A stretch of 64,000 nt of DNA from NCBI GenBank assembly GCA_021108075.1, contig JAIORP010000090.1, positions 15,828 to 79,827 on the forward strand, in the 5' to 3' direction. This stretch comes from Candidatus Omnitrophota bacterium (GTDB lineage: Bacteria > Omnitrophota > Gorgyraeia > Zapsychrales > Zapsychraceae). Shown piece by piece: positions 26,879 through 60,729 of this stretch (the first letter of the stretch is position 1; each line of letters starts with the position of its first letter). Below the pieces are notes generated by a model, which was not told where the DNA came from, did not search any database, and saw only the letters and a program-made list of their open reading frames with translations. Position numbers and translations under genes: made by a program.

Positions 26879-27751
26879 TCAATCAAAATATTCCGCTAAA
26901 CCCGAATCCAGCAACTGTTGATTCAAAAAATATCCATTTTTCAAGACGCGCTCTTTACTGGTCTCACCAGGAAGATAATACACATCCCCAACATACCGAC
27001 CGTAAAGATCCACCTTAAACGTTTGCACGATCAAAAAAGACACCTTATCTAAACGCTCCTGAATAAAGTGCCTGGCCTGAACAGCCTTCCTAGGTGCTAA
27101 CGCGACTCTAGATAGTTGCGGGGCATTGATTCCCCGCAACCGAATGCGTGAATCAAGCTTGACTTGAAAACCAAGGTTCAATTCAACAAAAATGGTGTCC
27201 CCATCAATGACCCTTAAAAGTTTGGCTTCATAAACATAAAGCTTGGCAGATTTTTTTTTCAGTTTGATATTACGAACAACACTGTCTGTAGCTTTTTTAA
27301 GGCGGCTGTGCTGGTAGTACTGATTCTTAATGCGATACCTCAGCTCCCTGGCATTCCAAGTATTTCTTTGCGCCTCTCTCTGATAATAATCTCTGATCTT
27401 TGAATCGTTAACGGTCATCAAATTGCGAAAATGACTCCAAGTCATGCGCGGGGCACTTTCAACTTTGTTCCGGTTCGGCCACAATTTATAAAATTTGATG
27501 ACACGGGTTAACAATGTGTATTCCATCTCCAGGGCTTGCGCCAATTTTGATAAAATAGGACCGGTAAAGGAGGATATTTTCCGTCTAAAAGCATCTTCTT
27601 CACACAATCTTTTTCCCATTTTCCAATAGCCATCAACCAAGACCGTGTTGGCTTGGATAGAAATAGTATTTTCTGTTTCTTTTTTAATATCAACAAGATC
27701 TGACAATAATTTAAAATAATCAATCTGGGGTTGTTCTCTTTTTTTAATCAT
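26879..27751 (-). CDS. DUF1016_N (YhcG-like N-terminal domain) fused to a staphylococcal-nuclease (SNase/thermonuclease)-like domain. The SNase catalytic motif is altered (GINAPQ instead of GIDAPE).
   Basis: The N-terminal half has ...TWSHFRNLMTVNDSKIRDYYQREAQRNTWNARELRYRIKNQYY, matching the WSHY...R.FY...A....WSVRELKRQI signature of DUF1016_N. The C-terminal half has VIDGDTIFVELN...IRLRGINAPQ...DLYGRYVGDVYY...LNQQLLDSGLAEYF, an SNase fold pattern. Confidence 0.6.
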   Translation of the reverse strand: MIKKREQPQIDYFKLLSDLVDIKKETENTISIQANTVLVDGYWKMGKRLCEEDAFRRKISSFTGPILSKLAQALEMEYTLLTRVIKFYKLWPNRNKVESAPRMTWSHFRNLMTVNDSKIRDYYQREAQRNTWNARELRYRIKNQYYQHSRLKKATDSVVRNIKLKKKSAKLYVYEAKLLRVIDGDTIFVELNLGFQVKLDSRIRLRGINAPQLSRVALAPRKAVQARHFIQERLDKVSFLIVQTFKVDLYGRYVGDVYYLPGETSKERVLKNGYFLNQQLLDSGLAEYFD

Positions 27752-28275
27752 TTTGTTCTCTATTTTCTAGTTAACAATAAATTGTTGTCTCAACTGTCAT
27801 TGTGGCAAATAAGACAAGATAATGATACCATCTTTTAAATCCGTTGTCAATACATCCATTTCAAAAATCTTTGGTGAAAAATCCTTTCCGAGATATCAAT
27901 GACCCATGACTCAATTTAAAGCCACGATTTCGGTAATGAAGAAACAACAAAATGACCGTAAAGGGGATGCTCTAATGGAGCCAAAAAAACGAATTATTTC
28001 AATTGCTCAATTTTGGCGTTGATACTTAAAATGATTAAAAATTTTCGAATATACCATCCATTGCCAAAATTTTCTTAAAATCTGTTGGATAAAAATGAGG
28101 ACCAAAATTCATCTCCAGCTTCCTTAAAATGAAAAAATAGGTCCTGTAAAAATATCGAAAAAGTAATCGGAATGGTTACAAAAGTTAACGCCGAAATCAC
28201 AAATTTTTGAATGGGCAGAAGAAAAAAATCGAATGGAAATTTTTATACACTTGAGAATAAAAAACTTTTATCTTC

Positions 28276-28729
28276 AACCTTAACTTTAATAAATGATATT
28301 GTGACGCGCATCCTCTTTGAAAAATGAGACTTTTGACTCTGTTCAAGTCTGTTTTTTATGCAGCAGTCCATTTATGTTTTTCTCAAATAGAGAAAAAATC
28401 TAATATGGGGATCACTGCGCATGGGGATTTTTTGAAAAATGTTGTCTCATTTCGCGAAAATTTGGTTGAATGAACCGTGGACCGAAATTCTGCCTTCAAG
28501 GGGAAGCAACCTTAACATTAGCAAATGATATTGTGACGCGCATCCTCTTTGAAAAATGAGACTTTTGACTCTGTTCAAGTCTGTTTTTTATGCAGCAGTC
28601 CATTTATGTTTTTCTCAAATAGAGAAAAAATCTAATATGGGGATCACTGCGCATGGGGATTTTTTGAAAAATGTTGCCTCATTTCGCGAAAATTTGGTTG
28701 AATGAACCGTGGACCGAAATTCTGCCTTC
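28276..28729. repeat. Two tandem copies of a ~232-bp intergenic unit, more than 98% identical, each containing a terminator-like hairpin (AGACTT..AAGTCT followed by GTTTTTT).
   Basis: The sequence taac(t/a)tta(at/gc)aaatgatattgtgacgcgcatcctctttgaaaaatgagacttttgactctgttcaagtctgttttttatgcagcagtcc...gaaccgtggaccgaaattctgccttc occurs at 28281 and again at 28513. Confidence 0.85.
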
Positions 28730-29469: not shown

Positions 29470-30366
29470 TTAACCGCCGGCCAAACCTGCGAATGGATTA
29501 TTCTGAGTAAAGTCCAGCAAAATCGGACCAGCAACGAGAATACCAACAACTGGAAAAATAAATATCAAAAGTGGAACAAGCATTTTTATCGGAGCTTTAA
29601 GAGCTAGCTGTTCACCGCGTCGATAACGAGCGAGACGCATATCCTCTGAAAGAATGTTTAAAGCGTCAATAACAGAGGTTCCCATTTTGTCGGCTTGAAT
29701 AAGCGTTCGGGCAAATGTGGATAAATCCGGCAAATCATATCGCAAGGCCAAGTCTTTAATAGCATCACGACGTGTCTTACCCACACTAATTTCCTGCAAA
29801 ACAACGTTCAACTCTTGGATCATGATTGACGGTGGTGACTTCTCAACAACCCATTTGAGGGCCAACATAAAGTCCAGACCAGCATTAACACAAAGGGCCA
29901 ATAAGTCAATCGCGTCCGGCAAATCCTTGACAATACTTTCCTTGGCTTTTTTAATCTTTCCTTTTAAAAGGAATTCCGGAACCATGTATCCGGCAACCAG
30001 CCCGATACACAACCACATAAAGATAAAATCAGCGGATACAGATGGAAAAGTCACCAATAAAACGACGAAACCCAACAGCTCTTTGACCAAAAAGAATTCT
30101 TCCGGAGTTAAATTAACGTGGGCAATAGCCAAATCTCTTGAAACCCGACGTCTAACAGCCCCTGAACAAAACGGTTTATTGATTTTTGATAAAGTTCTGA
30201 ACAGTAAAAAAATACTGTCTCTTTTCCTCTTTTTTGTGTCTGGTTCTGTTAATCCTAAATGTAATGTCGGCCGTGACTCCCAGTCAACAGGCATGATTCC
30301 AAGGATTAAACTAAACGCGCATAAATAAACCATGATCAAAATTAACTCTAACATAATAACTCCCAA
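29470..30366 (-). CDS. tadC: TadC-like type II secretion system F-domain inner-membrane protein.
   Basis: 298 aa with multiple TM helices. The T2SSF-domain region ...LKWVVEKSPPSIMIQELNVVLQEISVGKTRRDAIKDLALRYDLPDLSTFARTLIQADKMGTSVIDALNILSEDMR... is present. It lies adjacent to a TadB-like gene. Confidence 0.75.
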   Translation of the reverse strand: MGVIMLELILIMVYLCAFSLILGIMPVDWESRPTLHLGLTEPDTKKRKRDSIFLLFRTLSKINKPFCSGAVRRRVSRDLAIAHVNLTPEEFFLVKELLGFVVLLVTFPSVSADFIFMWLCIGLVAGYMVPEFLLKGKIKKAKESIVKDLPDAIDLLALCVNAGLDFMLALKWVVEKSPPSIMIQELNVVLQEISVGKTRRDAIKDLALRYDLPDLSTFARTLIQADKMGTSVIDALNILSEDMRLARYRRGEQLALKAPIKMLVPLLIFIFPVVGILVAGPILLDFTQNNPFAGLAGG

Positions 30367-30387: not shown

Positions 30388-31245
30388 CTAAAAATCCTTG
30401 AATGAACTGATCTTGATGATAAGAAACGCACCAATTATTTCAGAAATCACCGCATAAATTAACATGGAACGCCCTAAATCCGTTGTGAACATATGCTCAA
30501 AAATACGTTTATTTGATGAATAGACAATAAAAGCAAAACCAAGCGGCAACAAGGTCATGACAACGCCCTGTAATTTACCCTGAATCGTTAATGTGGATAA
30601 ATTTTGCTGAATTTTCTTACTCTCTCGAATATTAGTAACGATACGGGAAAAAATCAATGGAAGGTTTCCCCCGGTTTCCCGCGCAAGCAAAATAGCCGTG
30701 ATCATCTGCTGTAAAGCAGCTGACGGCATGCGATTGTACAAGTGGTACAATGCGTCTTCTAATGTTACCCCCATCTTATTTTCCCCCAATACAGAACTGA
30801 ACTCTGTATTAATCGGGTTGGGCATCTCCTCAACCACAGCCTCAAAGGCCTGAATAAGGCTCAATCCACCCCGAAAAGAACTGGACATAATCATTAAAGC
30901 ATCAATTAACTGATCTTTAAACTTCTCCTTAATTTGTCTGGTCATAATCTGAATGTAAACTTTTGGAAATAAGTAACCGCCAGTTGCGCCAATAATCAAA
31001 CCAAAAACACGTAATCCTTCCGGAAAAAGGAAATAAAGGGCCGCACCGAACAAAAATGGAGCAAAAACGAAAAATCGGCTCATTTTCTTGGCCTGATTGG
31101 TCGGTAACAGTTGTTGAAAATTCGCGGAAAGATTTTTCTGGCGCTTTTCACTAATAACAGTCGCTTTTTCGTAGACCATCGGGATAACCAGATAAGCAAT
31201 AAAAAAAATCGTGGTGAACATCAAGAATAAAATAATAAATAACAT
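30388..31245 (-). CDS. tadB: TadB-like type II secretion system F-domain inner-membrane protein.
   Basis: 285 aa. Contains ...MSSSFRGGLSLIQAFEAVVEEMPNPINTEFSSVLGENKMGVTLEDALYHLYNRMPSAALQQMITAILLARETGGNLPLIFSRIV..., typical of the T2SSF/TadB family. Confidence 0.75.
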   Translation of the reverse strand: MLFIILFLMFTTIFFIAYLVIPMVYEKATVISEKRQKNLSANFQQLLPTNQAKKMSRFFVFAPFLFGAALYFLFPEGLRVFGLIIGATGGYLFPKVYIQIMTRQIKEKFKDQLIDALMIMSSSFRGGLSLIQAFEAVVEEMPNPINTEFSSVLGENKMGVTLEDALYHLYNRMPSAALQQMITAILLARETGGNLPLIFSRIVTNIRESKKIQQNLSTLTIQGKLQGVVMTLLPLGFAFIVYSSNKRIFEHMFTTDLGRSMLIYAVISEIIGAFLIIKISSFKDF

Positions 31246-31357: not shown

Positions 31358-31696
31358 TTAACTTTGACATGTCGGCGTGGCACAAAGGGCAATAATGTCC
31401 TGACAGGTTGTGGGGTCGGGGTATCCATCCGTGCGGCAATATCCTCCGTTGGCCTTGAAACATCGGTAATCATACCAACAATATGTCCAATCCTGATCAT
31501 ACACGCATTCAATGGTCTCATCTGCATCATACAGGCGTCCAAAAGCCCAAGCGGAACCGGCCTTCTTCCAACTCCCATCCATGGCCCGCACAATATATTT
31601 TTGGAAAATCAAAAAAGCCCCTAGAAGCAAAAACATCATGGCCAAGAATTCCAAAGTCGATTGCCCTTTTCGATTTCTTTTCAACATAACCCTCAC
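31358..31696 (-). CDS. Small Flp/type IV pilin-like protein with a cysteine-rich C-terminal domain (8 Cys).
   Basis: N-terminal class III signal motif RKG|QSTLEF followed by a hydrophobic stretch. The C-terminal half is ...CVYDQDWTYCWYDYRCFKANGGYCRTDGYPDPTTCQDIIALCATPTCQS. Confidence 0.65.
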   Translation of the reverse strand: MRVMLKRNRKGQSTLEFLAMMFLLLGAFLIFQKYIVRAMDGSWKKAGSAWAFGRLYDADETIECVYDQDWTYCWYDYRCFKANGGYCRTDGYPDPTTCQDIIALCATPTCQS

Positions 31697-31767: not shown

Positions 31768-34700
31768 TTAAAAACTTAAACATTGAATAAATTTCATTCC
31801 CATGCCCTTGTTCATACCGTAATGATAATAGTATTCCATGCAAGCCTCTGTCTCAACGCCTTTTGCCAGGAATTTTGTCGCATAATCCCAACAAAGAGTG
31901 TTATCTAATGTTGGGTCAGAAGGATCATCACCAATTCGTATATAACGCCACAACATAAAGGCGTCACCATACAAGAAACCCGGACCTGCGTATGAGTTTG
32001 GATTGTTTGGTTGCGCGACATCTTGACAGGAGTTCTCCATCATATTAAAATCATTCGGATCAATGACAGGAAGTTGCCGGGTATTGATGATTCTAAAATT
32101 CCAAATTTTGGTTTCACCATCCGCGAAATAAATATCCCGGCTTTGCCGGCCCTGATCGTAACGAGAAACTCTCATTTTAATAACACCCCGTTCATCCACT
32201 AACTCATAACAACGGGTCATACCCCAGTCCTTACCATATGTACGCACACGTGGGAAAGCCCGATAAGAGCGCTGGTTTGAAGCACATGCAGCATCGCATC
32301 GCCCCGGAGTCCGCGCATCTACACGGACGATATGCCACAGGCCTTGAGATGTTGGATCTGTCGGATCAGGGGGATCTCCTTGCCAACCATAAATAACGTG
32401 ATAGGGCAAGGCCCTCTCGTCACCCGTCGCAAGATCAATGTAATATTTAATAAAATCCTGAGCCACATCATTAAGATATTCAGAAAATTCCTGGTAAGCG
32501 CGGGCTAAAATGTTGTACATATTGGTGAGCTCCGTCAGACGGTCGTTTAAAAAGCCAACCCGTTTACGCATTTTATTGATTTGATTGACAGACTGTTCTG
32601 ACGCTTCTCTGGTCAGATCAATAAACCCTTTAGCTTTAGGAATATTCTGCCCTAAATAACAATTGTCACAATTCCCGTCAATTCCGTCAAATGGAGGTGG
32701 CGGACATGGATAGGTCGCACTACAAAAACCATTCTGCCGTGTTTCCGCACAAGATCCTTGAGCAAGGATCATTCCCCGCTCTATCGCCCGCATGAAGACA
32801 GGATCCAAACAAGTACCGCCATCCAAAATATGATCGCCGGTCCAGTCACAATCATAACGTTGTGTATAAGCACAACTTGCGCCCATACACGTGGCCGTAT
32901 TCGTACAACTGTTCAAATCAATACAATCCCCCGGGTCACAAGCCGCAAGGCAGGCACAACCCAGACAATTCTGAACGGTACAACAGGGCAATGGTGTTGT
33001 TGTTGCACAAGACGGATGAGCAGGACATGCCGGACAGGCGGCCTCACAACACCCCGAACAGTCAGCCGTGCAACAGGCTAGGGGTATTGTCGTCGCACAA
33101 GACGGATGAGCAGGACATGCCGGACAGGCGGCGTCACAAGTTGTTGAACACGTGCTACAAGGAATACACGCTGGACACATAGGAACCACACAACTGGTTG
33201 GACAGGACGTATTACATCCATACGTGTTGAAGGTTGTCGGTGTTCCCGCGCACCACGTATCATCAATGACCGAACAGGTCCGATTAGCAACAATCGGATC
33301 CAAACAATCTATTCCCGGGCAATCCACCAGAGAATCAACATCTGCCGGAGAATTCTGCGTACAAACTAAATTTTGCGGACAAGTATCATATACCGTTCCA
33401 CTGCTTCCAACAGACCATGTGGGATAGACAAACGGACCCGCAAATTCCCCAAAAACAACGCCATATTTCGCATCGCCAAGATAAGTGGCATAAACAACAT
33501 CACAAAAATATGGTGCCATGGTGCAATCTTCCTGGAGCGGATTATTCGTGACATTCCCCAGCCAACATTCATTACAATCAACCCCTCCATTCGTCACCGG
33601 TGTTCCTGTATTTAAAATACCTGTGTAGCAATCATTAAAATCATTGTATACCGCCATATCCATCGGAATAAACGGCCAGTCATCATCAAAATAAGGAATA
33701 ATAGAACGCGGCAAATCCGAGCAAAGCCCTTGATAATTCCAGCAATCTGTCGCACAAAGCTCAAACTTTAAGGAATTTCCTACAACAGCCACCCCGGGGT
33801 GATGCGGTGTCCAGCCCCCATTGGTCGAGGCCGCATCCGGAGGGATCGTTGCCCCTCCGACTATATCATTCGCATTCCAATCCAAACACGCAACAAGATC
33901 CTCAAAATCTCCACGAACGCCGTTTCCATTGGAATCAAATGTCGCAATTTCCACCGCCGGAGAGTCCACTGGATCAGCAGCAGGAACACACCAAGCATCG
34001 GCAACCGGCTCTACGTGAGTAGCCCCGTAAATTTGGTGTTCAATGCGCAAGGCAACTTCCTCAATCTCCTTCATAAAAAGGACGAGCGCTCCATCATAAA
34101 TTTCACAAATCCAACAACAAGGGGGAGTCCCACTCGCAGCCGCACCAACAGTGTGATCGACACGAGGATTCCCGCAAACAGATGAATCACCCGACGCACC
34201 GCTATTGGTTCCATATTCAATCCAAACAGCGATATCCTGGTACCATTGATCAATATCTTTTGTGATAATGGCCGGTGTAGATTCAAAAGCAACTAATCCT
34301 TCGGCAATCTCTAAGAAACTGGGTAATCCATAGACCATGTCATCTAAGACATCATCCGGATAATCTTCCGGCACCCCGCGTACAGCATCAATCGACACAT
34401 ACGGCGGCGCGCTAACCCCGCACTCGCAATTTTCATACGCTGTTGGGCTTGTCGGCACCGTTTCATCTTCCAAACTTAAACAGGCGATCAAACGGTCGAA
34501 ATCAAAACCGCTCCCAGGCGTTGTTCCGGTAACAGCCGTATCCTCACCACCATGACGGGCACAACCAGTCTGATATGACCAGTGTTGGGAGCAAAATCTT
34601 TTTGCCCCTTTTTTCCAAAAACCTCTGGGCTGGTTCGTGACATCGAGTTCCGGCGGCAATGCAATCGGACCACCGGCCCCCGGGTAATTAGCATAATAAA

Positions 34701-36735
34701 CCACATAAGCATCATCTGGAATAAATCTCTGGGCACAAATGGCCTCAACAGCGAGAATATCTTGTTCCAATTCAAACCCATCGAGAGGTAGGGGATTGTT
34801 CAATGGCTCAAGATTCGGATCCGTCCGAGGATCGGTGTAAAGTGGATTAATGGCTGGCCCAAGCCCCCAAGGGTCTTGATTGGGAGGCGCAGCAGGTACT
34901 GTTGCCCCGCCAAAAGGAACAACCGATGTTGATCCAACCGTTCCGGCTGGTGGAAATACCGTTGTATGCAGCCCATCAACCTGACAACTGCGGTCATAAA
35001 CCAAACGAGCCGGATCGATAGCAACATAAAAATGCACGCCAGAAAGAGTGGGCGTCGGGATAAAGTCATATTCTAATTCTTCCGGCAATGTTGTCACCAG
35101 TGGATCACAATTAGGCGGCATAACATTCGGACAATTTCCTGTTGACCAATCAAACCAATGACAGTGTTCAGGGCGATACGTATGATCCGAATTTAAATCA
35201 TTGTTATTGACCCCCGTAGGATTCAGTGACAAATATGTTGTTTCCGTACCAACAACCACATCTTCCTGCAATAAATTCATCCCCCAATCCTGCAATTTGT
35301 AAAGAGTTGGGAAAACACCGCCACGCAGCTCACTGTTGCTGTAACTCAAAAAACGGTCGGGATTCTCAATGTAATTGGTTGCATCTTTGATGTTCCACGT
35401 CGGATCCGGTGGAATCGTCCCCGTGGGGATAAACGGTGTCAAAATTTGCGGATGAAACTGGCTGTCATCCGCATCAATAGAGACCAAATCACGGTTGACC
35501 TCTGTATTCACACCATAAAGAGAAATGATCTCATCATCTCGGCCAAGTTGCTCAAGGAAAGATAGAAAATAGTCTGCACTGGCAGGATCATTGTTGCGAT
35601 GGTTTTCAAAGTATCGATCATAGACCCATGGATAGAGCGTGTGTGAAATAGGCGTTGTGCTTGCCAGCTCGCAGGTTCCCCAAGCGCCACAATCTCCAGG
35701 AGCAGCACCAAATTGAGTACAACACTCATCCCGAATGGCCAGCACGTTATTTTCATCAGAAGGATCTGTCACAACTGCTGGCAAACAACAGGGATTACAC
35801 TCCGACCAACGCCCTGCAGCAGCCTCTGGTAAACAAGGGTGATTCGTATCCATCGCTCTTAATTGCGCATACGGATCAGGCTCATAGGATATGCGGACAG
35901 GATCATACAGCCCCCAATCGTCACCATCCTTATAAATAAACTCTTTTGTGGCGACAATAAAAATACCCACCGGTCCGGGGTCTGCTTCTCTGATATCGCG
36001 CAATCGCCAATCATAATATGCTGAAAACCGGCTGATTTCATCATTGGGAACAGCTCCGGTAAAGCCAAACAGGCGATCCCCATCCAGGTCCTTTATATCC
36101 GGAACCTTACCCTGATCTGTCACCGATGCAAATAAGGCTTTTTGCATACCCATCTCAAGGAAAGAATCCGTCATGCTCATTGTTTCCGTAATAATAGCAT
36201 TCCACATCTCTGTAAGAGACGGCTCAATAACTGTGGCCTGAATCACAACGGACGCAACAGCCAAAACAACCCCAATAACGGCAACAATAGCAGCGGCTGC
36301 CGCATAGGACGAGGTGCCATATGTACAAATGGTTAAAACCAGAGCGATAACCGCAATGACCAAAGACAAAACAGTTTTAAATAATCCAGAAGAATCACAC
36401 TTCTTTTTGCTCCCGCCCAATGTTTCTTCAACCAGCACTTGCCCATAACTGGCCATTTGTGATCCCAGTCGCGCCGCGCCTGATGTGGCCGCGACCTGAG
36501 AAACAAGCTTCCCTTTATTTAGTCGCCCCAAATTTTGAGAGGCGGCATAAAAAACAAGCGCGATGGCAATCACAAACATTAACACAATCGCAACTTGCCC
36601 TTTGTTAGAGAAACCTCGACCTCTGGGACTTATTGCCTTTTTTTCTAGAAAAGCGCTTGCTCGTTCTTTTTTTTGTGTTTCAGAAAAAAGAATAGAAGAA
36701 AATTTTTTCAACAATTTATTAACAGATTGAAACAA
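31768..36735 (-). CDS. 1,655-aa extremely cysteine-rich, Asp/Pro/Gly-rich protein with a pilin-like N-terminal segment (NKG|QVAIVLMFVIAIAL), a second TM segment and tandem CPACPAHPSCATT repeats. Candidate pilus-associated adhesin or tip protein.
   Basis: Single ORF in the track. The composition is dominated by C, D, P, G, T and N with many CxxC/CC motifs. It sits between the TadE/TadG-like pseudopilin genes and tadB. No recognisable enzyme motif was seen. Confidence 0.7.
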   Translation of the reverse strand: MFQSVNKLLKKFSSILFSETQKKERASAFLEKKAISPRGRGFSNKGQVAIVLMFVIAIALVFYAASQNLGRLNKGKLVSQVAATSGAARLGSQMASYGQVLVEETLGGSKKKCDSSGLFKTVLSLVIAVIALVLTICTYGTSSYAAAAAIVAVIGVVLAVASVVIQATVIEPSLTEMWNAIITETMSMTDSFLEMGMQKALFASVTDQGKVPDIKDLDGDRLFGFTGAVPNDEISRFSAYYDWRLRDIREADPGPVGIFIVATKEFIYKDGDDWGLYDPVRISYEPDPYAQLRAMDTNHPCLPEAAAGRWSECNPCCLPAVVTDPSDENNVLAIRDECCTQFGAAPGDCGAWGTCELASTTPISHTLYPWVYDRYFENHRNNDPASADYFLSFLEQLGRDDEIISLYGVNTEVNRDLVSIDADDSQFHPQILTPFIPTGTIPPDPTWNIKDATNYIENPDRFLSYSNSELRGGVFPTLYKLQDWGMNLLQEDVVVGTETTYLSLNPTGVNNNDLNSDHTYRPEHCHWFDWSTGNCPNVMPPNCDPLVTTLPEELEYDFIPTPTLSGVHFYVAIDPARLVYDRSCQVDGLHTTVFPPAGTVGSTSVVPFGGATVPAAPPNQDPWGLGPAINPLYTDPRTDPNLEPLNNPLPLDGFELEQDILAVEAICAQRFIPDDAYVVYYANYPGAGGPIALPPELDVTNQPRGFWKKGAKRFCSQHWSYQTGCARHGGEDTAVTGTTPGSGFDFDRLIACLSLEDETVPTSPTAYENCECGVSAPPYVSIDAVRGVPEDYPDDVLDDMVYGLPSFLEIAEGLVAFESTPAIITKDIDQWYQDIAVWIEYGTNSGASGDSSVCGNPRVDHTVGAAASGTPPCCWICEIYDGALVLFMKEIEEVALRIEHQIYGATHVEPVADAWCVPAADPVDSPAVEIATFDSNGNGVRGDFEDLVACLDWNANDIVGGATIPPDAASTNGGWTPHHPGVAVVGNSLKFELCATDCWNYQGLCSDLPRSIIPYFDDDWPFIPMDMAVYNDFNDCYTGILNTGTPVTNGGVDCNECWLGNVTNNPLQEDCTMAPYFCDVVYATYLGDAKYGVVFGEFAGPFVYPTWSVGSSGTVYDTCPQNLVCTQNSPADVDSLVDCPGIDCLDPIVANRTCSVIDDTWCAGTPTTFNTYGCNTSCPTSCVVPMCPACIPCSTCSTTCDAACPACPAHPSCATTIPLACCTADCSGCCEAACPACPAHPSCATTTPLPCCTVQNCLGCACLAACDPGDCIDLNSCTNTATCMGASCAYTQRYDCDWTGDHILDGGTCLDPVFMRAIERGMILAQGSCAETRQNGFCSATYPCPPPPFDGIDGNCDNCYLGQNIPKAKGFIDLTREASEQSVNQINKMRKRVGFLNDRLTELTNMYNILARAYQEFSEYLNDVAQDFIKYYIDLATGDERALPYHVIYGWQGDPPDPTDPTSQGLWHIVRVDARTPGRCDAACASNQRSYRAFPRVRTYGKDWGMTRCYELVDERGVIKMRVSRYDQGRQSRDIYFADGETKIWNFRIINTRQLPVIDPNDFNMMENSCQDVAQPNNPNSYAGPGFLYGDAFMLWRYIRIGDDPSDPTLDNTLCWDYATKFLAKGVETEACMEYYYHYGMNKGMGMKFIQCLSF
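33005..33132. repeat. Direct 90-bp (30-aa) tandem duplication inside the Cys-rich gene, encoding CPACPAHPSCATT(I/T)PL(A/P)CCT....
   Basis: gcacaagacggatgagcaggacatgccggacaggcggc is present at 33005 and again at 33095. Confidence 0.8.
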
Positions 36736-36758: not shown

Positions 36759-37118
36759 TTAATAGTGTGGCGCCGTATCATCCCAGACGGCATTCATCTC
36801 TGTTGAATGGTAGAAAGAGGGATCTATTTGCCCCAGCGGGCCTCGATAATAGCTGGCAGGATCATAACCCGACAGGCACATCCCAAAAGTAAGATTCCCC
36901 AGGCATAATCCGTAATCCTCAACAACGCTTTGAACGAGCAGCCGATCATGGGCCAATCGGCGTTGAGCCAAATCAATCCCCGTCCAACGCAAGATCATTA
37001 TAATTGAATAAAACATGATAAATAATATAATCATACAAAAAGTAAATTCAATAAGAACCTGAGCAAATTTTTGATGAGTCCTTTTTTTTAGATTTCTTTT
37101 TTGCAAAACTGAAAACAC
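36759..37118 (-). CDS. TadE-like minor pilin/pseudopilin.
   Basis: N-terminus KFA|QVLIEF followed by a hydrophobic helix (TFCMIILFIMFYSIIMIL). Size is 119 aa, and it lies within the Tad locus. Confidence 0.55.
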   Translation of the reverse strand: MFSVLQKRNLKKRTHQKFAQVLIEFTFCMIILFIMFYSIIMILRWTGIDLAQRRLAHDRLLVQSVVEDYGLCLGNLTFGMCLSGYDPASYYRGPLGQIDPSFYHSTEMNAVWDDTAPHY

Positions 37119-37147: not shown

Positions 37148-38620
37148 TTAATAAGTAATATTGACATACGGATCATTTTGCACATCGGTAATCCATTTGC
37201 GGCCTCTTATATCCCGGATCCGACTCCGCACAAAAATGCGCGGATAAATCGGAGGAACCGCGGCCATATCTCCTGCGATATAACAGGTTAAAACCAGATT
37301 ATTGCCGGAAAAACAATCAGGGAGTCCATTGCTACAACCGCCGTGAGGACTACAACAGACTTCAACAGGATTATATCCTGGACGCTCCGGATCAACTTGT
37401 GCCGCAGGAAGATATTCAAAACCCGTTTGGTGCACACAGAAACGACCTGTATCCGCACTAAGCTGAAGAAGCCGCGAGATGACATCAATCTGATCTTTTT
37501 TCTGTGCGTTACGCACAAACTGACGTCCTGGTTGATCTGCCGCGAACAGCTTTCCCTCTTCAATTAAAAGGTAGTGCCCCGGTTCGGTTTTGGTATAAAC
37601 CTGCATGTCACTCTGAAAGCCTGACCGGGGTTTTGTGTCGCTATCATTCACACCCGAATCCCAATCGCCTTCTTGAAAATCTTCAACGTAATAACTTATC
37701 GCCCGCCCCCAACCATCGCTGACCATGCTCCAGACTCGCTCTTGTTTAAGATCTCCATCCAGATCGAGCATAACATTAACCTCTTCAGCGATATTCATCA
37801 ATTCTGCTATATTGAAATTCCGGGTAATCGTACTATTTTTGGTCGAATCCCACCCCCGCACACGGACCCATTGCCAACCAAATTCTGCGCGAAGGGCTGG
37901 ACCAACGACATCGGTGGCTCCATCGCGATCCAGATCAAAACGGTCGTCTTCAGGCAATAAATCAGCGGGACACGAATTCGGGCAAGTTGAGGTAGGCGTT
38001 CCACAACAATATTTTTCACTCGCCCGATGGTTGAAAACCTTCATTGGAAAAAACCGACAACCCGCGGGGCTTTGAGTCGTTATAATAGCTCCTGTTGGAC
38101 TGAATGATGTCGTCGATCGGATCAGACAATTAGGATCCCAGGCGGAATCAGGACCTGTCATTGGAACCGCAATAGTAACATAGTTAGATATTGTTAAAGG
38201 AAAATATTGTCCATTAACAAAAGCATCAATTCGTGCAATGTCTTGCCTGTCATTTCCTTCAATAGCCATAAACAGGTGACGGCTAAAACTAGCGGAGCCG
38301 CTAGCCATGTACGGTGATCTGTTCTTCGAGGCAAATTTTGCGGATGCTCCTGCTAATCGATCTTCAACATAAATTACTGTTGCGCTGTTGCGCGAAGCCA
38401 TCGGCCCTGCCCCCATCATTCCTTCCGAATACATGTACGACTGTTGCAGGGCCATCCGCATCGCTCGAATATGATGATGCTGCCCATAAGATTGATTCAT
38501 AGATTGCTTAACCGTAACGCCGATGACAAAAAGAAGAACCGATCCAAAAACAGCCAATTCTAAAGCTGTTTGTCCCCAACGATTATCTGCTTTTTTTTGT
38601 TTTATATAAATTTGATTCAT
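37148..38620 (-). CDS. TadG-like large pseudopilin (490 aa) with Ca-binding-like D-x-D-x-D-G motifs.
   Basis: N-terminus NRWG|QTALELAVFGSVLLFVIG has Glu at +5 and a hydrophobic helix. Later motifs include FDLDRDGATDVVGP and LDLDGDLKQ. Confidence 0.6.
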   Translation of the reverse strand: MNQIYIKQKKADNRWGQTALELAVFGSVLLFVIGVTVKQSMNQSYGQHHHIRAMRMALQQSYMYSEGMMGAGPMASRNSATVIYVEDRLAGASAKFASKNRSPYMASGSASFSRHLFMAIEGNDRQDIARIDAFVNGQYFPLTISNYVTIAVPMTGPDSAWDPNCLIRSTTSFSPTGAIITTQSPAGCRFFPMKVFNHRASEKYCCGTPTSTCPNSCPADLLPEDDRFDLDRDGATDVVGPALRAEFGWQWVRVRGWDSTKNSTITRNFNIAELMNIAEEVNVMLDLDGDLKQERVWSMVSDGWGRAISYYVEDFQEGDWDSGVNDSDTKPRSGFQSDMQVYTKTEPGHYLLIEEGKLFAADQPGRQFVRNAQKKDQIDVISRLLQLSADTGRFCVHQTGFEYLPAAQVDPERPGYNPVEVCCSPHGGCSNGLPDCFSGNNLVLTCYIAGDMAAVPPIYPRIFVRSRIRDIRGRKWITDVQNDPYVNITY

Positions 38621-38678: not shown

Positions 38679-39002
38679 CTAATAAGAGGCGACCCCTTCG
38701 TAGCCTATTTTTCTTTCCGTGCTGACCGTCATGTCTCGTCGTCGTGACCAATATCCAGTCGGATCATCGACGGTAATTAACTGTGTATTCGTATTATGTT
38801 CTAGCGTGTACAGCAAGGAGGTGTTGCCGAGTCGAGGATCATATTGGTCACCTAATCCGTCGACAGCTGCTTTCCATCGTCCCTGAATGCCTCTTTTGTA
38901 GTAATTGCTGATGCCGACAAACGCGCCCAATAAAATCACAATAATCGACGTGTACTCAAGGACGCTTTGGGCTTTTTTATTCTTTATCAGTCGTTTTAGC
39001 AT
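38679..39002 (-). CDS. Flp/type IVb pilin paralog.
   Basis: N-terminus KKA|QSVLEYTSIIVILLGAFVG. Good RBS (aggaagga) and a TATAAT box upstream on the minus strand. Confidence 0.7.
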   Translation of the reverse strand: MLKRLIKNKKAQSVLEYTSIIVILLGAFVGISNYYKRGIQGRWKAAVDGLGDQYDPRLGNTSLLYTLEHNTNTQLITVDDPTGYWSRRRDMTVSTERKIGYEGVASY

Positions 39003-39067: not shown

Positions 39068-39403
39068 TTATCGATCTCGATGTCCCATGTTGATTTTTGC
39101 ATTGGACACCGTGTAGATGGTGTCATCGTAGACGAAATTAAATATTCCCAATCGTTCCATTCGCCGTTTGTTCACCTGCGATCTTCTCGACGTATAGGAA
39201 TGCTCAAGATGCCCTCTCTCGCGTGAAAATTCTTGTTCAGCATTATGCTGATTTCCAATCTGATCGACGACCAAACGAATCATTGTCTGTGTTGACCTTT
39301 TTATGAGCGGAAGCATGGCATACATCAAACCCGTTACAAGAGTTAAGACGACCGTATATTCTAACATTGTTTGTGCTTGATTTTCATATTTTCGTCTTAA
39401 CAT
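39068..39403 (-). CDS. Flp/type IVb pilin paralog.
   Basis: N-terminus NQA|QTMLEYTVVLTLVTGLMYAML. Confidence 0.65.
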   Translation of the reverse strand: MLRRKYENQAQTMLEYTVVLTLVTGLMYAMLPLIKRSTQTMIRLVVDQIGNQHNAEQEFSRERGHLEHSYTSRRSQVNKRRMERLGIFNFVYDDTIYTVSNAKINMGHRDR

Positions 39404-39411: not shown

Positions 39412-39801
39412 TTATTCCCAACGAGCCGTTCCTGGTGCCCCGGTTTCCGATTGAGTGACGCTTGTTTTTGATTCGTCCACAATTTTACGAAAAATCCCTG
39501 TTGTTCCTCCTGGCAATAAACGGGTGTCATGTGTGGCGCGCGCAGCTGAACGTGTTATCACATTTGAATAATAGGGTTCATATTCTGCTCGGTAGAGTTC
39601 CTGTACAATATGGGGGTCAGATCGGTCGACGATAATCGCAAACATGGTGCGTCGAGCATCTTTGAAACGAGCCTGGACCGCACGCTTAAAATAAAAACTG
39701 ATGGCTGTTAACATGGCTAAAAACATTGTTATAAAAATAACATATTCGGTTGACATCGCTTGTGCTTTTTTGTTCCGGATTTTTCTTAACATAACACACA
39801 C
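39412..39801 (-). CDS. Flp/type IVb pilin paralog (atypical spacing of the Glu).
   Basis: N-terminus KKAQAMSTEYVIFITMFLAMLTAISFYF. It lies 8 bp upstream of the next pilin gene. Confidence 0.55.
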   Translation of the reverse strand: MCVMLRKIRNKKAQAMSTEYVIFITMFLAMLTAISFYFKRAVQARFKDARRTMFAIIVDRSDPHIVQELYRAEYEPYYSNVITRSAARATHDTRLLPGGTTGIFRKIVDESKTSVTQSETGAPGTARWE

Positions 39802-40805: not shown

Positions 40806-41132
40806 TTAACCCCAGAATTCTTGTTGAACGTTGATGATAAATTCATTCAATAGAGTGTTAGTTACTTCTGCGCCAGTCAATGTTGATGTTGTAACACCAG
40901 TAGTGAACGAATCTAAAGTAGTACTAATTGTCGATGTCTGAACTCTTACGTTTGTGTTACCACTGGAGAATTGGTCTCCAATGTCATCAGCAGCACTTTT
41001 AAATCGTCCTTGCAAGCCTCTTTTTATGTATACTTGAATGGACAATAAAGCACCAATGATAATGATAATGAGAACAGCGTATTCAAGGGTGCTTTGCCCT
41101 TTTTGTCTTTTTTTGTTTAAATACTTAAACAT
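40806..41132 (-). CDS. Flp/type IVb pilin paralog.
   Basis: N-terminus QKG|QSTLEYAVLIIIIIGALLSIQ. RBS aggagga. Confidence 0.7.
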   Translation of the reverse strand: MFKYLNKKRQKGQSTLEYAVLIIIIIGALLSIQVYIKRGLQGRFKSAADDIGDQFSSGNTNVRVQTSTISTTLDSFTTGVTTSTLTGAEVTNTLLNEFIINVQQEFWG

Positions 41133-41192: not shown

Positions 41193-41561
41193 TTACCAAT
41201 CTTCACCCGCACCAACTTGTGAGTTGTAAAGGGATGTTTGATAACCAGCAGATTGTCTCGTTCTTTCATTGTCTGCCAAGTGTCTTGCACCATATATAAC
41301 TTGGTCATCCAACTCTTTAACATCCACGTCTTGTCTACTAATAGAATAGTTTGATTGCAAGTAGTATGGTTCGTACTGCATTGTAGTACCCATATCAGTT
41401 GTGGAATCTGACATGAACTTTGCTGCATCTTTCACGCGAGCTTGCAAAGCTCTTTGTGCATATGTTTGCATCGCAATAATACCTGCAACAACGAGAGAAA
41501 TCAAAATAGCATATTCAGCGGTATTTTGCGCTTTTTTATTTTTAAAAAGTTTCTTAAACAT
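41193..41561 (-). CDS. Flp/type IVb pilin paralog.
   Basis: N-terminus KKA|QNTAEYAILISLVVAGIIAMQ. RBS aggagga. Confidence 0.7.
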   Translation of the reverse strand: MFKKLFKNKKAQNTAEYAILISLVVAGIIAMQTYAQRALQARVKDAAKFMSDSTTDMGTTMQYEPYYLQSNYSISRQDVDVKELDDQVIYGARHLADNERTRQSAGYQTSLYNSQVGAGEDW

Positions 41562-41622: not shown

Positions 41623-41826
41623 TTATCGAGAACCTGATAATCTATTAGCCATTTTTGACATGCCATTGGTACCAGTTAAAAGCGTAGTGTTAAATGCAGT
41701 TTGAAAGACACCACCACTGGCAAGGAAAATCAAAAGGGCGGCGATTACAGCAGCGAACAAAATAATGTATTCTACCGTACTCTGTCCTTTTTTCTTTTTT
41801 GATTTCATGATATTTCTTTTGAGCAT
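41623..41826 (-). CDS. Flp/type IVb pilin paralog (67 aa).
   Basis: N-terminus KKG|QSTVEYIILFAAVIAALLIF. RBS aaggagga. Confidence 0.7.
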   Translation of the reverse strand: MLKRNIMKSKKKKGQSTVEYIILFAAVIAALLIFLASGGVFQTAFNTTLLTGTNGMSKMANRLSGSR

Positions 41827-41892: not shown

Positions 41893-42063
41893 TTATTCTG
41901 CTGTGAATTCATTTTGAATCATCTGTTGCGTTGCCTGAACCGAACGATACACATAAGTACCCATTGCTATAACTGCAGAAGATATAATAGCTGCGACTAT
42001 GGCATATTCAATTAAATGTTGTCCCTTTTGTCTTTTTATTTTTTTTTGTTTAATTGACATCAT
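41893..42063 (-). CDS. Flp/type IVb pilin paralog (56 aa, below the track's size cut-off).
   Basis: Hand translation of the minus strand gives MMSIKQKKIKRQKG|QHLIEYAIVAAIISSAVIAMGTYVYRSVQATQQMIQNEFTAE*. Confidence 0.6.
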   Translation of the reverse strand: MMSIKQKKIKRQKGQHLIEYAIVAAIISSAVIAMGTYVYRSVQATQQMIQNEFTAE

Positions 42064-42349: not shown

Positions 42350-44374
42350 TCAAAAATCAATAAATAACAACTTATTTTCCTGCGTCTTGATATGAGCGGC
42401 ATTAAGTCTTTGGCAGGCTTGTCGCAGTAATTTAGAATTTTCACAAACTCTTGATTCGCAAAGGTTTACGTTTACTTCATTGTCTGTCTTGCAAAATTTA
42501 CCCCGCAGGGACAACAAGGCGGCAAACGCATCTTCCCATTCTTCATTGGAAAGATATTTAAAATATAAATCTGGAAAAAATCTTTTCAATGTATATAAAA
42601 TAAGATCCTGCGCATAACTTTCAATCAAACTGATCACTCCTTGATCCATGGAAGCCATATCAAATGAAGCTTCCGGCATCTCGCAATTGTCCTCTTTTCG
42701 CCCATAGCCTACGTCTAAGTCGATCTGAGCAAAATTTCGCCAGCTACATAGATAAGAAAAAAGCACATCCTCCGTCTCTTGAGATAAATCATTCGTAATT
42801 AATGTACAGATTTCTTTATCCCTCTTTTCATTCCAAATACTAATGCCTTTTAATATAAAACTCACTTCTTCTCCGTTCTTCTCTGATATTGGAATCAATC
42901 CTTCCTTATAATAAAAAACCTCATCGTAGGCATTGTGATAAATAGCCTTAAAATCTCCCCTATTAAGCATTGCGAGTCCTTCTTGATACTGACAAACATA
43001 CGGCAGAGAAGAGCCGGGTTCTATCTGACCCTTCACATTTAAAAACATTCTGCTTTTCTGCTTGGGGTTTATTCCAATAACAACTCGCCTTTTCATCCTA
43101 GGAAAAACATCAAATGTTGCTAAAGGTTGCTGATTACTGCTGCAGATATTTATTTGCTTCACTTCTTGCGTTGAAACAGAGAAAAAAACCTTTAAAAAAG
43201 AATGGAGATGAGGGACATCGACATCTAACGAAGAAACATAAAAAACGTCCTGGTTACTGATAATATATTTTGTAACATCCTCAATTGATTTTAATAAAGT
43301 GCTTGTATTAATTGGGGGGGGAGCTGTGTGGACTGTAAATTGACTAAAATTAATGAAATATTTCGTGCCATCTACCAAGTTAAGCTCAACAAAGGCCGTT
43401 CCTAAAAAAACTTCCCTTTTACGCATTTTATATTCAAAAAGAATTTGTTCGGATATTTGTTGCTGATTAAGCGTGGCCCACTCCCGATTCAGGTCGACCT
43501 CTTTATAATTTAAAATACATTGAAATAATTCTGTCTGAGCGGAAACGAATGACATGGTGTCTTCCAGGCTATCAAGAAACACCCTTTGCTTTATGACCTT
43601 AAGCATCGTAAGCAGAGAGAGGGCATCCGGTAAATTCTTGGACCATAAACGAGACGTGCTTTGAAACAACTCTTGCCAAAAGGCACCTCGATTTAATTCC
43701 CATTCAGCAGCTCGAACAAAAACCATTCCCATGTTGGGAAAAACTGGGGACATCCTTTGTTCATATTCACGTTTTAATGTGCGAACATATTGTAAAAATT
43801 CCTGATGTTTCTTTTCACGCCAGAAAGGATTTTGTTTCGAATCCTTTAACCTCATTTTTCTATCCGGAATATGCGGTTCCTTTTTAGAAATGACGGGTAT
43901 CGCCTCTTCCCGTCTCTGTTCCAGCTCGTGTGTCCCATCCCCTTTAAACTGTTGCTCTGCCAGTAGAAGTTTATCAATTTCTTTTTTCAAGTCAGGCCTC
44001 TTCTTTATTCGGATGCTGTTCCTGTCTACGGATATATTTGAAGGTAAACTTTTAAAGAGCTGATTCTTTTTCTGTTCCGGGATAATAAACTTCAGTTCTT
44101 TTGGTGCATTCTTTTTTTGAAAACGTCTGCCGACCTGATTGCTTAATAGCGCTTTTTTGAGTATGGTATTAACAGAGGATTTGGATATTTTTATTTCAAA
44201 TTCCTTGCTCGCTAGTTCCGCTAACGCACGGCAACCGGAGGAAGGATTTTCTTTTTTAGCGTTGACAATATAGTCAACAACTTCTTTTTTTAATTTGTGA
44301 ATGACTCCCATAAATATATGATCAAAAATTTTTATTTTATAAAAATTATTAATGGTTTTATTGCATACAATCAA
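42350..44374 (-). CDS. 674-aa Lys-rich hypothetical protein with an N-terminal helix-turn-helix resembling transposase/Psq-type HTH. Function unknown; possible regulator or domesticated transposase.
   Basis: ...VDYIVNAKKENPSSGCRALAELASKEFEIKISKSSVNTILKKA... near the N-terminus. No TM segments, and no other motif I recognise. Confidence 0.4.
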   Translation of the reverse strand: MIVCNKTINNFYKIKIFDHIFMGVIHKLKKEVVDYIVNAKKENPSSGCRALAELASKEFEIKISKSSVNTILKKALLSNQVGRRFQKKNAPKELKFIIPEQKKNQLFKSLPSNISVDRNSIRIKKRPDLKKEIDKLLLAEQQFKGDGTHELEQRREEAIPVISKKEPHIPDRKMRLKDSKQNPFWREKKHQEFLQYVRTLKREYEQRMSPVFPNMGMVFVRAAEWELNRGAFWQELFQSTSRLWSKNLPDALSLLTMLKVIKQRVFLDSLEDTMSFVSAQTELFQCILNYKEVDLNREWATLNQQQISEQILFEYKMRKREVFLGTAFVELNLVDGTKYFINFSQFTVHTAPPPINTSTLLKSIEDVTKYIISNQDVFYVSSLDVDVPHLHSFLKVFFSVSTQEVKQINICSSNQQPLATFDVFPRMKRRVVIGINPKQKSRMFLNVKGQIEPGSSLPYVCQYQEGLAMLNRGDFKAIYHNAYDEVFYYKEGLIPISEKNGEEVSFILKGISIWNEKRDKEICTLITNDLSQETEDVLFSYLCSWRNFAQIDLDVGYGRKEDNCEMPEASFDMASMDQGVISLIESYAQDLILYTLKRFFPDLYFKYLSNEEWEDAFAALLSLRGKFCKTDNEVNVNLCESRVCENSKLLRQACQRLNAAHIKTQENKLLFIDF

Positions 44375-48795: not shown

Positions 48796-49665
48796 TTACA
48801 ATTCTCTCCCTCCTCGAAAGATTTGAATAAAGGGTTTCCCTTCTTCCGTTTCCTCATCAATCGACGTAATAACTGGTTTCTTCTGTTTCGGTAACATTAA
48901 CTCTGTGCCCTGATGCTCTAAAACAAAATCTGCTAGGGATTCCCAGGAAGCAACTTGTAGGTTCCATGTTTCCTTTTCAGCTGGAGCTCTTAAAGATAAT
49001 TGCAATTGTCCATTCTGTTGTGCAAAGCTCATTAAACCGACTTCTTCGGGCGTAAGCGCTAGCGTAATATTCAATGATCGAGTTTTTGATTGTGCTTCGT
49101 ATTGAGGGGCTTTACCTGCCATCTGAAAATTCGTGCCAACAGCTAAGACCTGTATATTTTGAAATAAAATTGTTGTAACGGTATCCGTTTCACTCGTATC
49201 AACACCTCGACCTGGTACTTCCAGGTGAGACAAAACATCAACAAAGTCACCCGGGCTAATGAGACCGCCAACAGCTGACAACGAATCAATCATGATTGTT
49301 AAAGCCCGCTTTCCTGGAGGTGTTTTAACAGAAAATGAATTCATCTCAACAACAGGGTCTTTTTTCGGAGCTTTTCCTCCTGGTCCACCAGGCTGAGAGG
49401 GTAAATTTGCCACCATCATTTGTTGTTGTTCTTGTTTCTTTCTTAAATCTTCCTGTTGCGCAACAACTTGCCTCATTTGCTTTTTGACGAGTTCTAACTC
49501 TCCAATTAAAGCGGCATTCTTTTTTTGATAATCTTTTGCCATGTCTTTCGCTTGACCTTTAATACTAGATTGGACATAGTGGCTGGTTAAAAACGTTGCA
49601 ACCAAACCCAGGCCTATTGCAAGCGAAATAGAAGCAAATTGCTTTTTGTTCTCAATGTTCATCAT
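48796..49665 (-). CDS. cpaB: CpaB/RcpC-like Flp pilus assembly protein.
   Basis: N-terminal TM segment. Contains PPGKRALTIMIDSLSAVGGLISPGDFVDVL, characteristic of CpaB. Lies immediately upstream of the secretin with a 3-bp gap. Confidence 0.65.
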   Translation of the reverse strand: MMNIENKKQFASISLAIGLGLVATFLTSHYVQSSIKGQAKDMAKDYQKKNAALIGELELVKKQMRQVVAQQEDLRKKQEQQQMMVANLPSQPGGPGGKAPKKDPVVEMNSFSVKTPPGKRALTIMIDSLSAVGGLISPGDFVDVLSHLEVPGRGVDTSETDTVTTILFQNIQVLAVGTNFQMAGKAPQYEAQSKTRSLNITLALTPEEVGLMSFAQQNGQLQLSLRAPAEKETWNLQVASWESLADFVLEHQGTELMLPKQKKPVITSIDEETEEGKPFIQIFRGGREL

Positions 49666-54046: not shown

Positions 54047-54120
54047 CGACCCCAGCGGGATTCGAACCCGCGTCGCGAGCTTGAAAAGCTCGTGTCCTGA
54101 CCAGACTAGACGATGGGGTC
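54047..54120 (-). tRNA. tRNA-Glu (anticodon UUC); no CCA encoded.
   Basis: The minus strand reads GACCCCATCGTCTAGTCTGGTCAGGACACGAGCTTTTCAAGCTCGCGACGCGGGTTCGAATCCCGCTGGGGTCG. It has a 7-bp acceptor stem, D arm GTCT/GGAC, anticodon stem CGAGC/GCTCG with loop TTTTCAA (UUC), and T arm GCGGG-TTCGAAT-CCCGC. Confidence 0.85.
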
Positions 54121-56688: not shown

Positions 56689-56737
56689 TTTGTTACAATA
56701 CCTTTCTTTTCTAATAACTGAAAAACCAAATAATTAA

Positions 56738-59481
<2,744 letters not shown>

Positions 59482-59484
59482 TTT

Positions 59485-60573: not shown

Positions 60574-60640
60574 GTGTTATTAACTCCGTGACGATTAGCT
60601 ATTTTTTGGGAACTAAAATAGTCGTAGTTATAATAGGACA

Positions 60641-60710
60641 TGTGAATAATTTGAATAAGAACAAAAAGTATTGAAAAATAATGGGTTATGACATTTTTGC
60701 CTGTGAATAA
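60641..60710. promoter_or_regulatory. Two DnaA-box-like 9-mers (TGTGAATAA, the reverse complement of TTATTCACA) in the dnaA-dnaN intergenic region, a second origin module.
   Basis: Located at 60641-60649 and 60702-60710. Confidence 0.5.
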
Positions 60711-60729
60711 GTTTTGCATTAATGATGAA

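Follow-up and report, generated by a model that had tools for sequence, protein, structure and literature searches.

What is the large, unnamed protein that Omnitrophota encode within a Tad-type pilus gene cluster? We addressed this question in a stretch of 64,000 nucleotides (nt) from a Candidatus Omnitrophota bacterium (GenBank assembly GCA_021108075.1, contig JAIORP010000090.1; here, the window), in which an open reading frame (ORF) of 1655 amino acids (aa) at positions 31768-36735 of the minus strand encodes a protein of an unannotated Omnitrophota family. Members of this phylum are widespread and uncultured. They are nanobacteria thought to be predators or parasites (PMC10066038). The most economical interpretation, to which we give about an even chance of being correct, is that this protein is the large, pilin-like first subunit of a Tad-type pilus of the Kil/Bdellovibrio-like kind, a subunit that lacks glutamate at position +5 of the mature protein (Glu5), carries a disulfide-rich variable module, and is a functional counterpart of GspK, TadG, or KilN. 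This reading is based on invariant synteny, a leader junction shared with neighboring genes, a hydrophobic +5 residue that is unique in the cluster, the size of the protein, its N-terminal helix, its cysteine pattern, and its inserts.

The ORF itself, which an earlier note made from the sequence alone had placed at these coordinates, is a genuine gene. It starts with a TTG codon preceded at 5 nt by an AGGAGG ribosome-binding site, and the start is backed by N-terminal residues conserved among homologs. Its product is 100% identical to the hypothetical protein K8S27_06080 of a Candidatus Omnitrophica metagenome-assembled genome (MAG). A frameshift or chimera is ruled out, as homologs are collinear with the protein over its full length and conserve the motifs at both of its termini.

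The earlier note recognized no homolog. To annotated families this applies without change: no significant family emerged when the protein, the family profile, and all members were compared with Pfam, NCBIfam, and PDB sequences. It does not apply otherwise, since a profile search of 1.84 billion cluster representatives recovered 778 unannotated representatives at E <= 1e-3, of which 356 reached E <= 1e-30; most are 1000 to 1730 aa long. A word-indexed search returned only eight relatives, at 28 to 33% identity. All named matches of the family are from Omnitrophota, and some third-party MAGs carry the title "uncultured Planctomycetales." Members vary in length from about 1000 to 1730 aa and differ through lineage-specific inserts. 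Judged by sequence similarity, this is a large, phylum-wide, and conserved family that has no name.

We compared the position of the gene across 37 loci, of which 33 came from a scan of species-representative genomes and four were distinct loci from a protein look-up (the six look-up records include two near-identical contig pairs, L001/L002 and L003/L004, and L006 is the contig of L007). Gene order was established by searching the locus ORFs with the window proteins. The cluster runs secretin, TadZA, DUF192, p674, Flp56, Flp67, mp122, mp108, mp129, mp111, mp107, p490, p119, the 1655-aa protein, p112, TadB, and TadC, sometimes followed by a DUF1016-SNase gene, and then by a giant ORF. In every fetched locus that covers the region, the gene occupies the same slot between the minor-pilin genes and tadB/tadC of this collinear Tad-type cluster, which bears out the association with a pilus proposed in the earlier note. 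The gene lies toward the 3' end of the pilin set with only p112 coming after it; in loci L037 to L039, p112 precedes p490 and the gene comes last. On the same strand in the window, Pfam identifies RcpC/CpaB, a secretin-TonB_C protein, a TadZ-TadA fusion, DUF192, TadB, and TadC, and eleven genes located between the ATPase and TadB encode products that open with a basic leader and a hydrophobic helix.

We then asked whether the protein shares the leader of these neighbors. Its N terminus reads FSNKG/QVAIVLMFVIAIALVFYAAS (here and below, the slash marks the junction), with Glu absent at +5, exactly as the earlier note had it. The basic leader (aa 1-46; 36598-36735, minus strand) ends in K-G, and the predicted prepilin-type junction, K-G46/Q47, is followed by VAIVLMFVIAIALVFYAAS. 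At this junction, G is found in 85 of 85 motif-bearing family members and Q in 82 of 85. Across species, all eleven pilin-like families of the cluster carry the motif [KR]-[GA]/Q where their first hydrophobic helix begins; the near-invariant G-Q agrees with the [GA]/Q junction in the other ten, and the proposal of a pilin-like leader stands. Past the leader motif, hhalign detected no homology between the family and any of the ten others. In these ten, position +5 is Glu (+6 in mp129) and the next residue is aromatic or Leu, whereas the +5 residue of the family of interest is Ile, Val, or Leu in 26 of 26 members (Val in the window protein). It is the sole pilin-like family of the cluster with a hydrophobic +5, and by far the largest. 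Of the features of a class III signal, the family has the basic leader ending in Gly and the roughly 20 hydrophobic residues that follow, and it lacks the Glu at +5.

The earlier note treated the missing Glu as a weakness of the pilin-like assignment. The observation is correct, yet it need not count against the assignment, since the absence of Glu5 is a published hallmark of the single tip or first subunit (PMC5207764). Most type II secretion systems (T2SS) and type IV pilus systems have just a single minor pilin in which position 5 is hydrophobic, and this signature has been proposed to mark the GspK-type subunit that is able to sit only at the filament tip (Ng et al. 2016, PMC5207764). The protein carries this first-subunit signature in full: a hydrophobic +5, the largest size, and a gene at the 3' end of the pilin cluster.

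To look beyond the leader, we turned to an AlphaFold2 model of a 1093-aa member, P0004, built from 53 sequences gathered by enlarging the alignment with a profile query (predicted local distance difference test [pLDDT] score, 81; predicted template modeling score, 0.78). With nine sequences, the pLDDT was 48.7 and the model was unusable. Hydropathy and the P0004 model place a long N-terminal helix, alpha1, at about aa 47-106 (36418-36597, minus strand), the first 20 residues of which are hydrophobic by hydropathy. In P0004, it is predicted as a single 62-residue helix that begins at the G-Q junction (residues 12-73); 10-residue blocks spanning residues 41-80 have pLDDT values of 79 to 92, and the model constrains the hydrophobic first third poorly. 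The combination of a loose hydrophobic part with a second part that is packed with confidence would resemble the layout of type IV pilins.

A second hydrophobic element, overlooked in the earlier note, follows a conserved Cys113. It is a conserved helical hairpin at about aa 116-170, whose two helices of about 22 residues (aa 118-140 and 145-170) are encoded at 36226-36384 of the minus strand. The hairpin is conserved in hydrophobicity and not in sequence, and it forms the only long low-confidence stretch of the P0004 model, with a pLDDT below 50. Next comes the acidic motif VTDxxxVPDxxDxDGD (aa 205-220; 36076-36123, minus strand), in which, among 64 members, conservation is 100% for D207, D213, and D216 and 95% for D218 and D220. 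From its residues, the motif looks like a putative calcium-binding loop, which we take to be reminiscent of the calcium site of PilY1 or of EF-hand loops.

The remainder of the protein consists of a conserved body, a variable region, and a conserved C-terminal part. The body (aa 221-1011; 33703-36075, minus strand) closes in an LPRS motif (aa 1008-1011) and holds several small lineage-specific inserts. Its counterpart in P0004, equivalent to about aa 171-1011, is modeled as some 630 residues with little regular secondary structure and a pLDDT mostly of 80 to 95. After the variable region, a long conserved helix with the motif NQVxKFxxRxxFL (about aa 1369-1421; 32473-32631, minus strand) corresponds to a 53-residue helix in P0004 (residues 789-841; pLDDT, ~96). 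It leads into a conserved beta-rich C-terminal domain (about aa 1446-1655; 31771-32400, minus strand) that contains seven conserved Cys and ends in FKFxPC; in P0004, predicted strands lie at residues 876-1088, with block pLDDT values mostly of 54 to 94. The earlier note had suggested a remote homology check on a predicted structure. Foldseek searches of the P0004 model against PDB and BFVD returned no match at E < 0.3, and because these fold searches found nothing specific, the modeled body and C-terminal domain appear to have no counterpart among solved structures.

The cysteines were what first drew attention to this protein, which had been described as extreme in cysteine content with dozens of CxxC, CC, and CxC motifs. 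These counts were too high. Cys makes up 83 of the 1655 residues (5.0%), ranking tenth after A, D, P, G, T, V, L, S, and I, and the three motifs occur 11, 6, and 2 times. CxxC is enriched (11 against a mean of 4.2 in composition-matched shuffles, of which 1 in 500 reached 11); CC and CxC show no excess over the same shuffles. D-P and D-x-D had both been called numerous; relative to shuffles, the former is enriched (21 against 10.2) and the latter is not (9 against 10.9). The Cys residues are concentrated, with 36 within aa 1101-1300 (18%), and they fall into two sets. When 64 members are aligned, 32 of the 83 prove to be conserved in 84% or more of them, 19 of these in the body, and 39 lie in columns absent from most members. 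The even number of conserved Cys, a parity check that the earlier note had called for, fits disulfides in an extracytoplasmic protein.

Within the pilin set of the cluster, Cys is restricted to a few products. Across about 30 species, it accounts for ~0% of residues in the Flp pilins and the five small minor pilins, 2.7% in p490, 3.8% in the family of interest, and 7.3% in p112. Counts are mostly even in p490, the family, and p112, and p119 has about one Cys; p112 has 7 Cys in the window and a median of 8 in ~106 mature residues across species. This confinement, together with the even conserved set, is consistent with the extracellular, disulfide-stabilized structure suggested in the earlier note, although we reach that structure by inference. 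A cytoplasmic metal-binding protein was rejected on topology (a leader and transmembrane helices) and on the conserved even Cys set. The CxxC-rich insert described below may bind metal.

The variable region between the body and the long helix (aa 1012-1367; 32635-33702, minus strand) is expanded in this protein to about 356 aa with 47 Cys, five of which (1036, 1071, 1174, 1277, and 1329) are family-conserved scaffold positions. The segment from LPRS to the long helix ranges from 44 to 443 aa in the 23 locus-encoded homologs in which both landmarks were located. A tandem 30-aa repeat that the earlier note had reported is real: two copies of AACPACPAHPSCATTxPLxCCT... stand at aa 1202-1231 and 1232-1261 (33043-33132 and 32953-33042, minus strand), identical at 69 of 90 nt, including the first ~39 nt, and Tandem Repeats Finder did not report the pair. 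By phmmer and tblastn, neither a set of 485 family or locus proteins nor the rest of the window contains a relative of the Cys-rich insert. When a database was searched with the insert alone, none appeared either, in a search insensitive enough to miss the identical database protein too, and aa 1012-1375 gave no match at E <= 10 among PDB sequences. Knottin and epidermal growth factor (EGF)-like readings fail as well, with no Pfam match, Cys spacings mostly of 3 to 8 residues, and no domain period besides the duplicated 30-aa unit. The S-layer and toxin-like readings gain no support from Pfam, which finds nothing. The Cys-rich stretch is a lineage-specific insert and not what defines the family; it is a species-level embellishment, and the family-wide architecture and the logic of the leader are more important.

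Inserts of other kinds occur elsewhere. CBM60 is a calcium-dependent carbohydrate-binding module. One member, P0067, carries such a module (E = 2.5e-14) at residues 455-532 of the conserved body, a different insertion site, which indicates that the body tolerates insertion of a binding domain.

Taken together, these features suggest how the protein might work as a first subunit. Before assembly, it would sit in the inner membrane with its basic leader in the cytoplasm and a disulfide-rich domain of about 1,500 residues outside the cytoplasm. Prepilin peptidase would cut it at G46/Q47. With its Cys-containing pilin-like neighbors p490, p119, and p112, it would then nucleate a tip complex on the TadB/TadC platform, beneath which the Cys-free small minor pilins and the Flp pilins would polymerize, driven by TadZ-TadA, and the complex would be pushed out by way of the secretin. 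The conserved body, at the distal end, would present lineage-specific modules to the surface of a host or prey cell: here, the ~356-residue insert with 47 Cys and a duplicated 30-residue unit, and in another member, CBM60. We infer the cleavage, the tip location, the partners, and the adhesion; an adhesin function in particular is suggested by gene position, the lineage-specific inserts, and CBM60 in the one member.

Several observations weigh against a tip subunit. Neither profile nor fold comparisons detected homology of the protein to pilins or TadG, no prepilin peptidase (Peptidase_A24) gene was found within the window, and a leader of 46 residues is long for a class III signal. The variable region evolves no faster than the core among close relatives and so gives no sign of the diversifying selection expected for a receptor-binding tip; given this negative rate test, we gave up the view that such selection maintains a hypervariable loop for receptor binding and kept the lineage-specific insertion sites. 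The hairpin is a further difficulty. It lies within aa 47-200, the most conserved region of the protein, it is without precedent in pilins, and it would have to be extracted from the membrane. It fits better with a permanent membrane anchor.

This raises the question as to whether the protein ever leaves the membrane. It could instead be a permanent, three-span inner-membrane component for assembly or alignment that is never extruded, with its N-terminal helix and hairpin holding it beside TadB/TadC and its periplasmic disulfide-rich domain linking the platform to RcpC and the secretin, in a role like that of PilMNOP or GspL/M and originally ascribed to TadG. We regard this as unlikely, though several features argue for it: three hydrophobic segments (aa 47-66, 118-140, and 145-170), the high conservation of aa 47-200, a gene that adjoins the tadB/tadC region, the lack of homology to pilins, and a hairpin that conserves hydrophobicity over sequence and is modeled at an AlphaFold2 confidence below 50, as for lipid-exposed helices. 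A plain anchor, however, has no need of a near-invariant G-Q at the very position of the co-encoded pilins' cleavage junction, nor does it account for a length that varies by about 700 residues. Lineage-specific inserts such as the 47-Cys module and the CBM60 of P0067 are hard to fit into a fixed periplasm, and the absence of Glu5, unique among the 11 pilin-like families, matches the signature of a tip subunit.

Even if the protein caps a filament, the filament need not leave the cell. It might be a short, T2SS-like pseudopilus that stays within the secretin, a piston topped, as has been proposed for GspK, by the bulky subunit without Glu5, in a machine that exports or displays the giant protein encoded directly downstream of tadC and does not build an adhesive pilus. 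In nearly all loci that extend far enough, a giant ORF does come after tadC, the cluster has been described as a type II secretion-like locus conserved upstream of giant genes (West-Roberts et al. 2023, bioRxiv 10.1101/2023.11.21.568195), and the GspK-type features (largest subunit, hydrophobic +5, 3' end of the cluster) are those of a pseudopilus cap. The machinery is nonetheless Tad-type, with Flp pilins of 56 to 67 aa, RcpC, TadZ-TadA, and TadB/TadC; such giant proteins are reported to have many transmembrane helices, which makes them unlikely T2SS substrates (PMC10066038); and a buried cap is not expected to acquire carbohydrate-binding or Cys-rich surface modules. We consider this proposal improbable. 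Very unlikely, in our judgment, is an effector or translocon that the pilus delivers and that inserts on contact into the membrane of the prey or host, its hairpin and long flanking amphipathic helices acting like the hairpin of the ClyA family or of type III secretion system (T3SS) translocators. Omnitrophota being thought predators or parasites (PMC10066038) would suit such a role, fold searches gave low-Z toxin matches, and in NCBIfam the hairpin of member P0007 matches MakA (E = 2.2e-4), the SipB-type PRK15374 (E = 2.1e-4), MakE, and Ssp4. These hairpin matches fall far below curated thresholds (20 bits against cut-offs of 320 to 828), occur in 1 of 9 members, and involve the least confident part of the model; no significant sequence or fold match to ClyA-family proteins or T3SS translocators takes in the hairpin. 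There is also a slim chance that both roles are combined, with a tip subunit doubling as a membrane-piercing device whose alpha1 N-terminal part and hairpin are carried out of the inner membrane on the growing Tad filament and, upon contact, insert into the envelope of the prey or host in the manner of a T3SS translocator or a ClyA-type hairpin. Were this so, the protein would hold the nanobacterium in place and might also clear a path for the co-encoded giant protein; a module of this type, delivered by a pilus for membrane insertion, would be new, and it would tie the Tad machine mechanistically to the giant genes of Omnitrophota.

A tip subunit remains our preferred reading, and much would follow from it. 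What genomes reveal of the way Omnitrophota attack their hosts comes mainly from the Tad-type cluster and the giant gene next to it, and this protein, annotated only as hypothetical, is the largest conserved component of the cluster after the giant gene. As a tip subunit, it would be the first molecule to touch the host and a handle for host-range prediction, antibody labeling, and cryo-electron tomography. It would extend the concept of an adaptable Tad tip from Myxococcus to a different phylum and add a fold without a match among solved structures. Its hairpin would pose a testable question, namely, how the subunit leaves one membrane or whether it enters another.

The remaining cluster genes of the window lie on the same minus strand. 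Directly upstream of the gene, p119 (36759-37118; FA/QVLIEF) is a small, TadE-like pilin-like protein whose match to PF07811 TadE is below threshold (E = 0.52), and beyond it p490 (37148-38620; RWG/QTALELAVF, with Glu at +5) is a large, Cys-containing pilin-like protein and a candidate tip partner. Directly downstream, p112 (31358-31696; RKG/QSTLEF) is pilin-like with a Cys-rich C terminus. The five Cys-free small minor pilins are encoded at 38679-39002, 39068-39403, 39412-39801, 40806-41132, and 41193-41561, and the two Flp pilins at 41623-41826 and 41893-42063. TadB (30388-31245) and TadC (29470-30366) both match PF00482 T2SSF (the two at E = 7e-16 and 9e-13). Pfam matches also define the TadZ-TadA fusion ATPase (44863-47046), the secretin fused to TonB_C (47116-48792), and RcpC/CpaB (48796-49665). 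The fusion ATPase joins TadZ (ParA/MinD-like) and TadA (T2SSE ATPase) in a single 727-aa protein, and the fusion is found in all loci that include the gene. The secretin (T2SS-T3SS_pil_N and Secretin domains) has an unusual C-terminal TonB_C domain, which is present in locus L003 as well. Between DUF192 and the Flp genes, a position that is fixed in every locus, p674 (42350-44374) is a 674-aa protein with no Pfam family and a weak match to HTH_Tnp_Tc3_2 (E = 0.0034).

Downstream of tadC, a giant stop-free frame of at least 8667 codons occupies positions 2-26002 of the minus strand and runs off the start of the window. In its first 4000 residues, the sole Pfam match is Peptidase_C39 (residues ~326-406, about positions 24785-25027), and its N-terminal 1000 residues share homology with the giant ORFs found downstream of tadC in most of the other loci. 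Between tadC and this ORF lies a DUF1016_N-SNase nuclease gene (26879-27751, minus strand). The gene occurs in a few other loci (L003, L004, L011, and L029) on one strand or the other, a pattern suggestive of an inserted element. The 1.7 kb that separate it from tadC are free of long ORFs and contain a 232-bp unit in two tandem copies that are 98% identical (28275-28729), with no Rfam match. The cluster as a whole lies near the chromosomal origin region (54235-64000): the minus strand carries gyrA, gyrB, dnaN, and dnaA, yidC is on the plus strand from 62863, the sign of the GC skew changes near 60 kb, and a tRNA gene is at 54047-54120. The Tad locus of V. archaeovorus has been reported near position 12-30 kb of its genome.

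How does the protein compare with known systems? Among large proteins proposed to sit at pilus tips, PilY1/PilC offers a partial parallel: our protein also exceeds 1,000 residues and is proposed to stand at the tip on a priming complex of minor pilins, and its acidic D-x-D-x-D-G-like motif resembles what we take to be the calcium site of PilY1. PilY1 is a soluble beta-propeller protein without a pilin-like N terminus, and neither a propeller nor a PilY1 match was found in our protein by Pfam. A large tip subunit of a type IV filament that lacks Glu5 is a known kind of molecule, and the locus too has been noted before: one study describes a "type II secretion-like" cluster that precedes the giant genes of Omnitrophota (bioRxiv 10.1101/2023.11.21.568195), and another speaks of a Tad complex (Seymour et al. 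2023, PMC10066038). With its rotamase, RcpC, secretin, ATPase, small class III signal genes, GspF-like genes, and giant ORF, the window is an instance of that locus. The available text of West-Roberts et al. 2023 and Seymour et al. 2023 neither names nor describes this protein of 1,000 to 1,700 aa, its leader without Glu5, or the hairpin, and in the available portions of the literature cited here we find no description of the family, the fold of its body and C-terminal domain, its size, its extra hairpin, or its Cys-rich module.

Members of the GspK family (GspK, XcpX, and the PilX/PilK type; PMC5207764) share with our protein the largest size and the sole hydrophobic +5 in their sets. It differs from them in belonging to a Tad system and not to a T2SS or type IVa pilus and in being about 5 times larger than GspK, and the GspK fold, a pilin domain with an inserted alpha-helical domain, was not detected in it by sequence or by fold.

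From KilN and TadG, it differs in that no sequence similarity was detected: when isolated N termini were searched against Pfam, its N-terminal 76 aa gave no PF13400 match at E <= 10, and one member only, P0009, gave a match below the 22.3 cut-off (E = 0.32, 11.8 bits). Pfam found in it no vWA domain, a common companion of TadG. It is two to four times larger than a typical TadG, it has the extra conserved hydrophobic hairpin after alpha1, and among the 33 genome-scan loci it occurs as one copy per cluster, in contrast to several interchangeable tip sets. Other features are shared. In the Kil Tad pilus of Myxococcus, disulfide-rich KilL/M/N tips stand on Cys-poor shafts, and the large TadG/KilN subunit, with its variable C-terminal domain, is placed at the pilus extremity (Herrou et al. 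2025, PMC12075869). The Omnitrophota protein is likewise encoded inside a Tad locus beside smaller TadE/TadF-like pilin-like genes, has a hydrophobic alpha1 behind a basic leader and a Gly junction, and carries a very large, lineage-variable C-terminal part of no known fold with many cysteines. As with KilL/M/N, p490, p119, and p112 flank it in all loci, and Cys is restricted to p490, the protein itself, and p112. In the predatory Bdellovibrio, whose Tad system has a TadZ-TadA fusion, depletion of TadG impairs prey invasion (bioRxiv 10.64898/2026.07.08.737194), and the machinery of Omnitrophota carries the same fusion.

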